Positions 17,982 to 23,927 of a stretch of 54,238 bases of DNA are shown in pieces. The position numbers and the translations under genes were made by a program. Under the pieces are notes generated by a model. It had not been told where the DNA came from and did not search any database. It worked only from the letters and a program-made list of their open reading frames with translations. Position 1 is the stretch's first letter, and each line of letters starts with the position of its first letter. The DNA is from a virus (lineage: Duplodnaviria > Heunggongvirae > Uroviricota > Caudoviricetes). Location: IMG/VR virus record IMGVR_UViG_2541047842_000005. One strand, 5' to 3'.

Positions 17982-18160
17982 AAAACGAAATTAAAGATCT
18001 GCAAATAGATGTTCAACGTGACGAGCATGATTTAGCGACAGTCAGACGAATCCAGGCTTTTCACATGCAGGAATTACTTGCGCTGAAAGAGCTTGAAAGA
18101 AAACTGGTGCAAACCATTTCTGATCGCAAACGCCTTATTGCTCGCTATGGGGGCAAATAA
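17978..18160 (+). CDS. hypothetical protein (60 aa)
   Basis: Compact ORF; predicted coiled-coil-like sequence. Confidence 0.4.
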   Translation: MKNEIKDLQIDVQRDEHDLATVRRIQAFHMQELLALKELERKLVQTISDRKRLIARYGGK

Positions 18161-18888
18161 TGAATTTAGAATCCATTCTGAAATTCCACTTTCCCAAATC
18201 ACCGCGATTATCAGGCGAAAGCCGGGGAACATCCCCGGATGCACTTAATACGACGGATGCGCTTACCGCCGCTGGTATGGCGCAATCGCGCGTAGAGCTT
18301 GGCTATAGTGCTTTTTTAGGGAAAATGGAGCTATCGCAAGCTGAAAAACACAGGGCCGTAATTTTGCTTACAGAGCGTTTAAGGGTTATGGCGAAAGATT
18401 ACGAATACGTGATGGAATTAAATGAAGAACAACGCAATGATCTTATTATTCTTGTTGCCGTTTTCGCGTTTCGGGATTACTGCCAAAGTGCGGCTACCGA
18501 AAAGGTTTGCCCTAAGTGCGGAGGTAACGGGCTTTTACCGAATCCATATTGTGAATACACATCGACAGTTTGCTCGCGGTGCAACGGCAAAGGCTACGTT
18601 AAAAACCATTGCCAGAGGTGCAAGGGGCGTGGCGAAGTACCGGATAAAGCAGCCAGCGAAGCGGCGGAAATGCCAGTATTCAAAACGTGCCAGCATTGCG
18701 GCGGGCGCGGGTACTCGCGTTTCCCTGTAGATCTTGTCCGGCAGGCGGTTAATCAGCTTGTTTTCCAGGTAAGCCGATCAACATGGTGGAAGAAATACCG
18801 CGCTTTCTATGAAGACGCCATTGCTGAATTGTTCAAGGAAGAGGCGCGGGCTGATAACGAAATTAAACGAGTTACGCGGGGTGAATGA
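18160..18888 (+). CDS. putative late antiterminator Q-like protein with four CxxCxGxG zinc-finger repeats
   Basis: 242 aa; CPKCGGNG, CSRCNGKG, CQRCKGRG, CQHCGGRG; position directly after ninG-rusA as Q in lambdoid phages; family assignment is from memory. Confidence 0.45.
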   Translation: MNLESILKFHFPKSPRLSGESRGTSPDALNTTDALTAAGMAQSRVELGYSAFLGKMELSQAEKHRAVILLTERLRVMAKDYEYVMELNEEQRNDLIILVAVFAFRDYCQSAATEKVCPKCGGNGLLPNPYCEYTSTVCSRCNGKGYVKNHCQRCKGRGEVPDKAASEAAEMPVFKTCQHCGGRGYSRFPVDLVRQAVNQLVFQVSRSTWWKKYRAFYEDAIAELFKEEARADNEIKRVTRGE

Positions 18889-21452: not shown

Positions 21453-21694
21453 AAGTGAATTATTTCAGGGCAAAAGACAAGGCAACAGGAAAGCGGGTGG
21501 CTATCCTGGTTAATGAAGCAAATTATATGTTTGTTCTCCAGCCGTGGTGCATAGCTGACTATAACGATGATTATCGCCGTCACGCTGCGCGGCGGGCGGT
21601 CGGGATGAAAGGCTGGCAGCCTCGCGACATGCTTAATTACTGCGACTGGAATCTGATAGCAAAATACACGGTCGATTATAAAGGGGTTTTCTGA
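21449..21694 (+). CDS. hypothetical protein (81 aa)
   Basis: ATGA overlap with the upstream stop. Confidence 0.4.
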   Translation: MKVNYFRAKDKATGKRVAILVNEANYMFVLQPWCIADYNDDYRRHAARRAVGMKGWQPRDMLNYCDWNLIAKYTVDYKGVF

Positions 21695-21906
21695 TGCAAG
21701 TTAAATGCTCATACTCAAGCAATGACAGTGTTTTCACGATTGGGAGTATTTATGACGTTCACATCGTTTATGGCAATGAAGCACACACAATGAGTAATTG
21801 CCTTGCCTTGATTGATAATCATGACGAAATATGGGTATTCAGGCCGAGCTATGAAGGCGGTGAAATATCCGGTGTAGGTTTTGCTGCCAGCTTTGAACGT
21901 TATTAA
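21694..21906 (+). CDS. paralogue family member A (70 aa)
   Basis: FTIGSIYDVH ... LIDNHDEIWVFR. Confidence 0.4.
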   Translation: MQVKCSYSSNDSVFTIGSIYDVHIVYGNEAHTMSNCLALIDNHDEIWVFRPSYEGGEISGVGFAASFERY

Positions 21907-21916
21907 AGGGGCAACA

Positions 21917-22174
21917 ATGAAACATTTATATTTTGAGGTATTGCAGACGCGCGACCGCAATATTTTTGAAGAAGGGAAGATCTATTGCGGCGTTCAACTC
22001 CACGGCGCACCGGGCGGTGATGGTGCAATGGCGATAACTGGCGATGATGATAAAGTTTATTTCGCTTATGTTAGCCATATCAATAACGCCGCTGGTTTGT
22101 ATATTTATCGCATAGTGCATGATTTCCGTGAGATCGCGGAGTTTTGCGCCCGCGAAGGCAGTAAACCGGAATAA
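21917..22174 (+). CDS. paralogue family member B (85 aa)
   Basis: FEEGKIYCGV ... AITGDDDKVYFA; track start 21881. Confidence 0.4.
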   Translation: MKHLYFEVLQTRDRNIFEEGKIYCGVQLHGAPGGDGAMAITGDDDKVYFAYVSHINNAAGLYIYRIVHDFREIAEFCAREGSKPE

Positions 22175-22184
22175 GTGAGGTGCT

Positions 22185-22424
22185 ATGAATCGGAAACATA
22201 GATACCAGTGCACATACTCACGATGCAGCGCGTTTTTTAAGAATGGCAAGATCTACGAGGTTGACGCGGCATTGGTTGACGCAAAGGATCAGGAATATAT
22301 TCATGCCATTACTGACGACCAGGGGCAGTTATGGCGATTTTATAAGATGGGTTGTGGCACGGCGCTTGTTTATGCGCGTGCTGGTGGTGGTGCTTTTGCT
22401 GCGTTTTCGTATGTAGGGGTATGA
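22185..22424 (+). CDS. paralogue family member C (79 aa)
   Basis: FFKNGKIYEV ... AITDDQGQLWRF. Confidence 0.4.
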   Translation: MNRKHRYQCTYSRCSAFFKNGKIYEVDAALVDAKDQEYIHAITDDQGQLWRFYKMGCGTALVYARAGGGAFAAFSYVGV

Positions 22425-22645
22425 AAATGATTTTAACGTGTAACGAATCGAAATTGGGCTGTTTTGAGGAAGGCGTACAGTACACGGCTGAAAAACCGAT
22501 GGGATTGTCTCCTAAATTTCCGTTTATCGTCGTGACTGACACTTACGGTCACTTATGGTATGCAGGGCCGCTAGGCGGTATTGGTCGTTATGTTGTCCGT
22601 AGTTCGGATGGGGCGATGAAGGTTACTTTTACGGAAGAAACGTAA
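22421..22645 (+). CDS. paralogue family member D (74 aa)
   Basis: FEEGVQYTAE ... VVTDTYGHLWYA; ATG 22421 overlaps the upstream stop; track start 22352 is an unlikely extension. Confidence 0.4.
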   Translation: MKMILTCNESKLGCFEEGVQYTAEKPMGLSPKFPFIVVTDTYGHLWYAGPLGGIGRYVVRSSDGAMKVTFTEET

Positions 22646-22701
22646 ATGTGATCTGTATCACAAGGTTTACGAAATGGCATTGTTTCGGCAGTGCCATTTT
22701 G

Positions 22702-23408
22702 TTGTGCACAGAAAACCCCCAGCTAGGCTGGGGGTTCCGGAAAGCTTTCAGCTTTGAGCCAGTTATTAAAACCCCTTTTGATTTGTTAAAACACCTTGCG
22801 GTCTGGCAACTGCAAGTGTCAAACAAGAAATCAAAAGGGGGTCCCAATGGGGAACGAAAAGAGCTTAGCGCACACCCGATGGAACTGTAAATATCACATA
22901 GTTTTTGCGCCAAAATACCGAAGACAGGTGTTCTACAGAGAGAAGCGTAGAGCAATAGGCAGTATTTTGAGAAAGCTGTGTGAGTGGAAAAGCGTACGGA
23001 TTCTGGAAGCTGAATGCTGTGCAGATCATATCCATATGCTTGTGGAGATCCCGCCTAAAATGAGCGTATCCGGGTTTATGGGATATCTGAAAGGGAAAAG
23101 CAGTCTGATGCTTTACGAGCAGTTTGGTGATTTGAAATTCAAATACAGGAACAGGGAGTTCTGGTGCAGAGGGTACTACGTCGATACAGTGGGTAAGAAC
23201 ACGGCGAAGATACAGGATTACATAAAGCACCAGCTTGAAGAGGATAAAATGGGAGAGCAGTTATCGATTCCCTATCCGGGCAGCCCGTTTACGGGCCGTA
23301 AGTAACGAAGTTGGATGCAAATGTCAGATCGTGTGCGCCTGTTAGGGCGCGGCTGGTAAGAGAGCCTTATAGGCGCATTTGAAAAACCTCCGGCTATGCC
23401 GGAGGATA
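22702..23408 (+). mobile_element. IS200 (IS200/IS605 family) insertion sequence
   Basis: Contains a tnpA colinear with IS200 TnpA; perfect left-end hairpin CCCCCAGC-TAG-GCTGGGGG at 22716-22734, RBS-sequestering inverted repeat at about 22772-22822, right-end hairpin CCTCCGGC-TAT-GCCGGAGG at about 23388-23406; boundaries estimated from the expected ~707 bp length, +/-10 bp. Confidence 0.7.
22847..23305 (+). CDS. tnpA: IS200 transposase TnpA (HUH Y1 transposase)
   Basis: 152 aa from MGNEKSLAHTRWNCKYHIVFAPKYRRQVFY; HxH motif ADHIHMLVEIPP and C-terminal catalytic region RNREFWCRGYYVDTVG match IS200 TnpA; the track ORF 22796-23305 includes an upstream extension. Confidence 0.9.
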   Translation: MGNEKSLAHTRWNCKYHIVFAPKYRRQVFYREKRRAIGSILRKLCEWKSVRILEAECCADHIHMLVEIPPKMSVSGFMGYLKGKSSLMLYEQFGDLKFKYRNREFWCRGYYVDTVGKNTAKIQDYIKHQLEEDKMGEQLSIPYPGSPFTGRK

Positions 23409-23454
23409 TTTATTATAAAGAAGCTGAAGAGAGAACGATGCGGAGGGTAGAAAA

Positions 23455-23733
23455 ATGAAACGCTGGATTAACAAAGAAGTCGAATCTCGCTTAAACGCAT
23501 TTTGGGAGATGGTGGAGAAAGAAGACCCAGCACACGCTGCAAGCCCTTACCTGAACAACATCGAATATCACTACATTGCAGCAAACAACGCGGAGTTCGA
23601 AGAAGAAGGTGGAGCCGACAAGTTCGCACAAAGCAACGCATTCAACAACGCAAACGAAATGATGATGGCAGTCATCGAACAGGCAGAGGAAGACTACGAA
23701 TGCAAATCACTTGAATTCGCACGTATGGCATAA
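23455..23733 (+). CDS. hypothetical protein (92 aa)
   Basis: SD GGAGGG upstream; acidic. Confidence 0.45.
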   Translation: MKRWINKEVESRLNAFWEMVEKEDPAHAASPYLNNIEYHYIAANNAEFEEEGGADKFAQSNAFNNANEMMMAVIEQAEEDYECKSLEFARMA

Positions 23734-23884: not shown

Positions 23885-23927
23885 AACACGGGGCCGGATG
23901 GCCCCATCAAATCAGAAGGGTGTAATC

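Follow-up and report, generated by a model that had tools for sequence, protein, structure and literature searches.

Among the described relatives of the element studied here, IS608 and ISDra2 resemble it in their homologous Y1/HUH transposase, their subterminal hairpins, the lack of a target duplication, and insertion 3' of a short motif that is read by a guide (PMC5027513). In IS608, the single-stranded target TTAC is read by the guide AAAG, which lies just 5' of the foot of the left-end hairpin, and integration activity is retained on 3'-overhang targets that adjoin duplex DNA (PMC5027513). An earlier note on the DNA analysed here had stated that IS200-family transposases target single-strand hairpins. 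This has to be corrected: the hairpins that IS608 TnpA binds belong to the ends of the IS itself, and what it targets is a short single-stranded motif (PMC5027513), which at the present locus is TT-N-TT at the 3' edge of a terminator T-tract. Both IS608 and ISDra2 carry tnpB, whereas IS200C does not. The ISDra2 target is reportedly the pentanucleotide TTGAT, and we know of no report of a hairpin requirement in the target of either element. The TT-N-TT found here differs from the IS608 target in that it almost always follows a terminator hairpin and resembles the terminus of the IS200C right end.

With respect to its landing site, IS200 has its closest analogue in group IIC introns. These home to positions immediately 3' of the stem-loops of Rho-independent terminators, or of other inverted repeats (PMC7923331), which is the same kind of site, but they are retroelements that recognise it by RNA-DNA pairing, and their mechanism and ancestry are unrelated to those of IS200. 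The ISs that target REP sequences (e.g., ISPpu9) insert at extragenic palindromes (PMC8450116; PMC3333891); they belong to different IS families, and their target is a specific family of repeated palindromes, not generic terminators. A survey published in the ISME Journal in 2026 reported a statistical excess of terminator-like sequences immediately 5' of ISs, strongest in IS200/IS605, which it interpreted as a limit on transposase expression, not as a choice of target (PMC13548323). Beyond this survey, we found no explicit statement of terminator targeting for IS200 in the literature searched; older papers on IS1541 and IS200 may already describe the target.

The DNA analysed here (54,238 nucleotides, hereafter the window) belongs to a mEpimmI-type temperate coliphage of the mEp021/mEp044 group; it begins directly behind the integrase gene and reaches as far as the last gene of the phage. 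The phage is a mosaic, with 87–99.6% identity to the MS 21-1 prophage at dgcM-zntB. We consider it highly probable that this phage carries a complete, intact and probably mobile IS200C, which recently inserted, without duplicating its target, at the 3' border of a T-tract that belonged to a phage terminator already in place, i.e., at the usual kind of site for its clade, where it split a predicted promoter while late transcription probably reads through it. The locus is mostly ordinary, being a known element in its usual kind of site. What the analysis adds is that the ends are now placed exactly, that the hairpin is identified as a terminator serving as the target, and that the target rule is made explicit.

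Identity and exact ends of the element

The element is identified as IS200C itself, an already known kind of IS and a minimal member of the IS200/IS605 family. All 707 bases of positions 22702–23408 are identical (100%) to copies annotated in RefSeq as 'IS200/IS605-like element IS200C family transposase' in many complete E. coli genomes, and with a query coverage of at least 80% this stretch finds a place in 2064 of 5426 complete E. coli genomes. The tnpA gene (22847–23305, plus strand) is intact and encodes a Y1 (HUH) transposase of 152 aa. Its product matches Pfam Y1_Tnp over profile positions 2–121 of 121 (E = 3.8e-38), has the HIH motif at residues 61–63, and is homologous to the solved structures 2ec2, 2f4f, 2a6m and 2vjv, which include IS608 TnpA (E-values 1e-15 to 4e-23). 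It is the sole ORF with a family match inside the 711-bp block, which has no tnpB. In every trait that can be read from sequence, positions 22704–23414 agree with the definition of the IS200 group of the IS200/IS605 family.

We fixed the ends of the element by comparison with empty sites. A 3.3-kb query around the site retrieved no record with the whole stretch. The prophages of E. coli MS 21-1 (L001) and E. coli CB7286 (L002) have both flanks, 100% and 99.8% identical, respectively, and the gap in the alignment is exactly 711 bp in each. The IS is present in 0 of 18 IMG/VR relatives of the downstream gene, most of which have an identical empty site. The empty site reads ...GGCAGTGCCATTTTGTT|ATAAAGAAGCTG..., and removing 22704–23414 from the window restores it exactly; the insertion thus took place without target-site duplication. 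The comparison with uninterrupted relatives that the earlier note had proposed could be completed: MS 21-1, CB7286 and the 18 IMG/VR contigs allow the pre-insertion phage sequence to be rebuilt, and it is now exactly fixed.

We placed the complete element (711 bp, plus strand) at 22704–23414 because other IS200C copies stop at the identical right terminus (...GGAGGATATTTATT / ...ATATTTATT) and continue into unrelated right flanks. The boundaries given in the earlier note (22702–23408) differ from these: the left end is displaced by 2 nt, and the right end comes 6 nt too early. Its description of a complete IS200-type element was borne out by the 100% identity, the full-length Y1_Tnp match, the Rfam match described below and the empty-site comparison; the truncation for which it had allowed was not found. 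The copy appears intact and has probably retained its mobility.

Some freedom remains in how the ends are drawn. TT closes both the left flank and the IS, so that both junctions could equally be drawn up to 2 nt further to the left. We also considered that the TT on both sides might be a 2-bp target duplication and judged this unlikely, on the single informative case of locus L064, where the left flank ends in CT and the right end still in TT. All 47 of the collected right ends read ...TTATT, a motif demanded by the search pattern. The published length of IS200 is 707 bp (PMC4513863). When the published numbering is mapped onto the window, nt 1 falls at 22703 and nt 707 at 23409, 5 nt short of the right junction, and we attribute the gap between 707 and 711 bp to how the ends were drawn in T-rich DNA. 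By the present definition, elements measure 709–712 bp, with 711 bp in E. coli and 710 bp in Yersinia.

The two termini, GTGCACAG... and ...ATATTTATT, are not inverted repeats on inspection. Each end has its own hairpin, and both hairpins give good folds as RNA and as DNA. The left-end hairpin, AACCCCCAGC-TAG-GCTGGGGGTT (22714–22736, plus strand; -18.7 kcal/mol), is the first helix of a match to the Rfam family STnc490 (RF01405), whose model comprises the IS200 left-end terminator hairpin and the SD-sequestering stem-loop of the 5'-UTR. This match covers 22714–22837 and model positions 1–124 of 124, and scores 146.4 bits against a gathering score of 56. In published numbering, the left-end hairpin occupies nts 12–34 and is a bidirectional terminator (PMC4513863). 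The third helix of the STnc490 match is at 22775–22837 (plus strand), and the antisense RNA art200 would lie on the minus strand opposite roughly this region (for the roles of both, see PMC4513863). At a permissive Rfam threshold, STnc490 alone was credible; a match to snoR113 (E = 0.9; 18.7 bits against a gathering score of 47) was set aside as chance.

The right-end hairpin, CCTCCGGC-TAT-GCCGGAGG (23387–23405, plus strand; -15.9 kcal/mol, z = -4.5), is terminator-like on both strands in a simple scan. It is followed by the tail ATATTTATT (23406–23414, plus strand), whose last letters, TTATT, have the same form as the target motif. Directly 5' of the feet of the two hairpins stand plus-strand AAAA tetranucleotides, at 22712–22715 on the left and at 23383–23386 on the right. 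From this layout and by analogy with IS608, we regard them as the putative left guide for the T-rich target and the putative right guide. The IS200C described from E. coli has the same transposase, left-end terminator hairpin, STnc490 5'-UTR stem-loop and right-end hairpin, and the present copy differs from it in nothing but location. IS1541 of Yersinia and IS200 of Salmonella share with it the left-end hairpin, the right-end sequence and the form of the target, and differ in the first 8 nt of the left end (GTGCCCAG vs. GTGCACAG) and in the host species.

A predicted phage terminator and a predicted promoter at the empty site

The left flank of the IS is a phage hairpin that runs into the T-tract TTTTGTT, together resembling an intrinsic terminator (22669–22703, plus strand). 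The hairpin has a 15-bp stem and a UUCG loop (22669–22702) and folds stably as RNA (-19.9 kcal/mol, z = -5.8) and as DNA (-10.2 kcal/mol, z = -4.7). It contains the inverted repeat AAATGGCA-N12-TGCCATTT, which the earlier note had placed correctly, to the base, at 22672–22699. This repeat is the sole perfect match in the window, where 0.04 matches would be expected by chance even with up to two mismatches. The homologous hairpin of phage mEp044 is annotated as the Rho-independent terminator T7 (an ARNold prediction). The hairpin and the TTTTGTTATAAAG that follows it are kept in all 18 IMG/VR relatives, 3 of which have a different upstream gene, and in one IMG/VR relative the hairpin has base changes that preserve pairing. 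It is thus a predicted intrinsic terminator that derives from the phage and is older than the IS. Just 4–5 of its 15 pairs are G:C. It was not flagged by a simple promoter and terminator scan, a miss that we put down to A/T pairs prolonging the stem into the T-tract.

The predicted target is the pentanucleotide TTGTT (22699–22703, plus strand), which lies directly 5' of the IS and conforms to the consensus TT-N-TT of the flank logo described below. The earlier note had suggested both flanking hairpins as the insertion target. The suggestion holds for the second, i.e., the terminator hairpin, which is found in every empty site and follows a clade-wide rule. It is not supported for the CRP-like dyad, which lies about 41 nt from the junction, is already there in the empty sites, and lacks its second half-site in 5 of the 18 relatives that keep the hairpin.

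This dyad, TGTGA-TCTGTA-TCACA, is present exactly where the note had reported it (22647–22662). It is the sole perfect match to the core TGTGA-N6-TCACA in the window and forms the core (centre 22654.5) of a CRP-like site of phage sequence, AAATGTGATCTGTATCACAAGG (22644–22665). It is also found in the empty sites of MS 21-1 and CB7286 and in mEp044. At the other side of the IS, ATAAA (23415–23419, plus strand) completes a predicted extended -10 box on its 3' side: without the IS, the sequence spanning the insertion point is TG-T-TATAAA, and the TTTTGTTATAAAG of the empty site is the one conserved in all 18 relatives. Dyad and extended -10 box may together act as a CRP-dependent promoter from which the downstream gene is transcribed. 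The first phage gene downstream (23455–23733, plus strand; 92 aa, phrog_7287) is preceded by a GGAGGG ribosome-binding site; a Pfam match of this ORF to PAP_RNA-bind fell below threshold (17.9 bits, cut-off 24) and was not retained. The insertion would split the predicted extended -10 promoter, which could drive the downstream genes (23455 onwards) in the lysogen, and this expression would probably be lost. Our prediction is that one small module may have lost a lysogenic, possibly CRP-dependent, promoter. The earlier note had suggested that the insertion may have cut downstream island genes off from their promoter, and this prediction is a specific and plausible version of that suggestion; the main late transcription, however, would enter from upstream under the control of the Q-like antiterminator.

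Alternatively, the dyad at 22647–22662 may be a palindrome that arose by chance, or may act as an RNA element where the upstream gene ends, and the IS would then have disrupted no promoter. We take this possibility seriously, although we lean towards a CRP site. Among the 18 IMG/VR relatives, both half-sites are perfect in 11, one mismatch is found in 2, and the second half is lost in the aforementioned 5, a loss that favours a chance or RNA dyad. The dyad folds weakly (-5.7 kcal/mol, z = -1.45). The consensus scan found no sigma-70 promoter at the empty site either; it requires a -35 box, and an extended -10 is invisible to it. Several observations speak against a chance dyad. Its core is perfect, and 17 of 22 positions agree with the 22-mer CRP consensus. 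The diverged relative L203 retains both half-sites despite a different spacer. Finally, the centre of the dyad lies some 60.5–61.5 nt upstream of the start predicted from the conserved TG-T-TATAAA, and a distance of about -61 suits the geometry of a class I CRP promoter.

Landing sites across the IS200 clade

To see where other members of the clade had inserted, we scanned the left-end hairpin sequence against one genome per species and against IMG/VR. This resulted in 185 copies with 155–156 distinct left flanks, from Yersinia, Serratia, Citrobacter, Vibrio, gut metagenome-assembled genomes and many proviruses. In almost every collected flank, the IS is immediately preceded by a GC-rich hairpin and a T-run. 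This includes all the collected copies of Yersinia pestis, and Odaert et al. reportedly described terminator-like hairpins beside IS1541 in 1998. A strict terminator test was positive for 131 of 156 IS left flanks and for 36 of 780 random positions. The last 45 nt before the junction fold at -12 kcal/mol or below in 98% of the IS flanks, compared with 11% of the controls. A bulge-free hairpin ending within 12 nt of the junction is present in 106 of 123 flanks (86%), compared with 8.5% of all TTTNTT sites and 10% of the TTTNTT sites outside long ORFs (odds ratio 56, p = 1e-69).

The logo of the 123 independent flanks has T at position -5 in 123/123, at -4 in 114 and at -2 in 121; position -3 is mixed (T 72, A 29, G 12, C 10), and the T at -1 is imposed by the way in which flanks were selected. 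The distance from the last G:C pair of the stem to the junction is mostly 6–9 nt, and the T-tract is always on the top strand of the IS. Two independent loci have head-to-tail IS200 dimers, in which the second copy stands directly after the right end of the first. As judged from these flanks, the usual landing site of the IS200 clade is a predicted stable, GC-containing hairpin, followed by about 6–9 nt, TT-N-TT and then the IS. Such a rule would explain why the elements of the clade are well tolerated and poorly expressed, and why tandem dimers arise. It helps annotators to draw the ends of IS200 correctly, and from it the terminators at risk can be predicted, among them regulatory terminators of phage operons. 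Hairpin and insertion are linked by correlation, and fixed copies have already been filtered by selection.

Two lambdoid phage records, Lambda_ev058 and PhiR63_2, provide further cases within an operon. In both, IS200C lies between ren and ninB, directly after a hairpin and TTTTTATT (GGCCTGC...GCAGGCCTTTTTATT). We take this hairpin to be lambda tR2, and the insertion site presumably belongs to the N-antiterminated early right operon. These copies behind an in-operon terminator suggest that such insertions are tolerated.

The pattern could have arisen by survivorship, if IS200 enters any single-stranded T-rich pentanucleotide and only the copies in harmless places, downstream of terminators, persist. 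Fixed genomic copies are indeed a selected sample, and insertions of IS200 and IS1541 inside genes (hisD, inv) are known, which counts in its favour. The terminator-like sequences upstream of ISs have also been read as contexts that favour persistence (PMC13548323). Nevertheless, we regard survivorship as unlikely. Away from long ORFs, hairpins precede TTTNTT sites far less often than they precede the IS (the 10% vs. 86% given above); the spacing between the last G:C pair and the junction is narrow; the T-tract has a single orientation; and insertions at in-operon terminators, as in the late region of this phage and between ren and ninB in the two lambdoid phages, are not neutral. We favour structure-assisted targeting over pure survivorship because of the ORF-free control, the tight spacing and these non-neutral insertions.

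Structure-assisted targeting can be sketched by analogy with IS608. An excised single-stranded circle would integrate into single-stranded target DNA, and the A-rich guide 5' of the left-end hairpin foot (AAAA, 22712–22715) would pair with the T-rich pentanucleotide. Pairing between an A-rich guide and a T-rich cleavage or target motif fits the layout of IS200C, where AAAA lies 5' of both hairpin feet, the left flank closes with TTGTT and the right end with TTATT; that all collected copies share AAAA follows from the search pattern, which fixed the guide. The folded terminator stem, for its part, would create a double-strand/single-strand junction that mimics the right end of the IS (hairpin plus ATATTTATT). 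This right end is a hairpin with 9 T-rich nt and was flagged as terminator-like in the scan; a terminator therefore resembles a right end, with which the tandem dimers agree.

We propose tentatively, giving it a little less than an even chance, that IS200-clade transposases home structurally to intrinsic terminators, with the stem mimicking the right end and the left guide pairing with the T-tract, and that the terminators of antiterminated phage operons are their preferred entry points. If this is true, IS200 would be the DNA-transposon counterpart of group IIC introns, and the IS would travel inside virions and be transcribed while the phage grows lytically. The explicit target model may merit a short experimental test.

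Late transcription and the age of the insertion

The IS lies among small accessory genes that are clustered between a Q-like antiterminator and the holin. The gene of the antiterminator (18160–18888; Pfam Antiterm 5e-32, phrog_127) is 3.8 kb upstream of the IS, and the genes of the holin (25691), lysozyme and Rz are 2.3 kb downstream. Given this position between the Q-like antiterminator and the lysis genes, late transcription must cross both the phage terminator and the IS. Polymerase modified by Q is expected to read through the phage terminator as well as the hairpins of the IS. Late transcription thus probably reads through the IS, and the lysis and structural genes would still be expressed. 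The mEpimmI phage group is described as having both N-like and Q-like antitermination (PMC11893012).

The insertion looks recent: neither the IS, when compared with other copies, nor the flanks, when compared with an empty-site prophage, show any difference (100% identity in both cases), and the junction was found nowhere else. The junction between IS and phage does not occur in 5,426 complete E. coli genomes or in 50,697 phage records, and a search of IMG/VR and the metagenome collection with the exact left junction returned no match. The earlier note had taken the IS as a mark that the element had been host-resident for some time. The three observations above point in the opposite direction; what the insertion shows is a passage of the phage through a cell with IS200, not a long residence.

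They also weigh against a dead relic, that is, an ancient insertion in a prophage that was inactivated by polarity on its lysis and structural genes. IS200 was discovered as a polar insertion and has a bidirectional terminator in its left end (PMC4513863), which would suit such a relic, and the window begins just after the integrase gene, so that the integrity of the prophage can be judged only in part. We nonetheless find a relic very improbable. The IS is identical to many other copies, with its ORF and both ends intact; the identical flanks in the empty-site prophage and the unique junction do not suit an ancient event; a Q-like antiterminator is encoded upstream; and the same IS stands behind a terminator in another operon in the two lambdoid phage genome records.

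The idea that the hairpin, the CRP-like dyad, or both belong to a longer IS with its own upstream terminator, or were created by the insertion, was suggested by BLAST matches to other IS200 loci that reach 14–20 nt left of 22702, and can be dismissed as next to impossible: it is refuted by the empty sites, since both features occur base for base in IS-free relatives, and the leftward extension of the matches is mere likeness between the 3' arms and T-tracts of different terminators. Members of the IS200 group transpose as single strands ('peel and paste') into the lagging-strand template, and we presume from the K-12 map that a prophage at dgcM-zntB in this orientation would have the top strand of the IS on that template.

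IS200 copies downstream of probable terminators

The placement of IS200C directly 3' of a terminator-like hairpin recurs in two lambdoid phage records, Lambda_ev058 (L004 2441-3226) and PhiR63_2 (L005 2441-3226). In both, the element lies between ren and ninB, directly 3' of the hairpin GGCCTGC...GCAGGCC followed by TTTTTATT, which we take to be the lambda tR2 terminator. Lambda tR2 is located within the N-antiterminated early right operon. Two other loci carry head-to-tail IS200 dimers, with left-end patterns spaced by 711 nt in L098 and by 710 nt in L168 (reverse strand). In these dimers a terminator precedes copy 1, and copy 2 abuts the right end of copy 1 (...GGAGGATATTTATT directly followed by GT...), a layout that fits the use of the right end as a target mimic.

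The Rfam STnc490 model matches window 22714-22837 on the plus strand, i.e., in the sense of tnpA, and the match spans the left-end terminator plus the stem-loop of the 5'-UTR. Since art200 (STnc490), as published, runs antisense to the tnpA 5'-UTR (PMC4513863), the model appears to describe the sense leader.

Small ORFs, a minus-strand hairpin, and CRP-like dyads

Four small ORFs of 70-85 aa each lie in tandem at window 21694-22645. They have a weak common motif, F..G.IY ... (I/V)(T/D)D..G.(L/I)W, at 15-24% identity, and two of them match phrog_31142 (unknown function). From their sequences they look like diverged paralogues, in agreement with the earlier note, whose label "paralogue D" implied as much. 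On the minus strand, a terminator-like hairpin, ATGGGGCC-ATCC-GGCCCCGT then GTTTTATG, occupies window 23888-23907 between two plus-strand ORFs; it is also present in the MS 21-1 prophage (L001 4778-4797).

Across the whole window, TGTGA-N6-TCACA is matched seven times when one mismatch is allowed (4551, 8128, 12985, 16411, 22647, 44755, and 52104), against 1.57 expected, and this number was reached in none of 100 shuffled sequences. Judged by sequence, a phage-wide enrichment of CRP-like or similar dyads is possible.

Prophage boundaries and an Acb1-named homologue

The window starts (1-40) in the final few dozen bases of what is the integrase gene in related prophages and closes (53972-54238) on the last phage gene. 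It appears to be a predicted provirus region with both ends cut slightly short. The related prophage in MS 21-1 is located between dgcM (ydaM) and ynaN/zntB.

The homologue of window 30478-31869 in locus L187 (33203-34573; 456 aa) is named "anti-CBASS protein Acb1 family protein" in RefSeq. This name may be misleading because the gene, which has a 504-aa ORF on one side and a minor head protein on the other, occupies the position expected for a portal protein.
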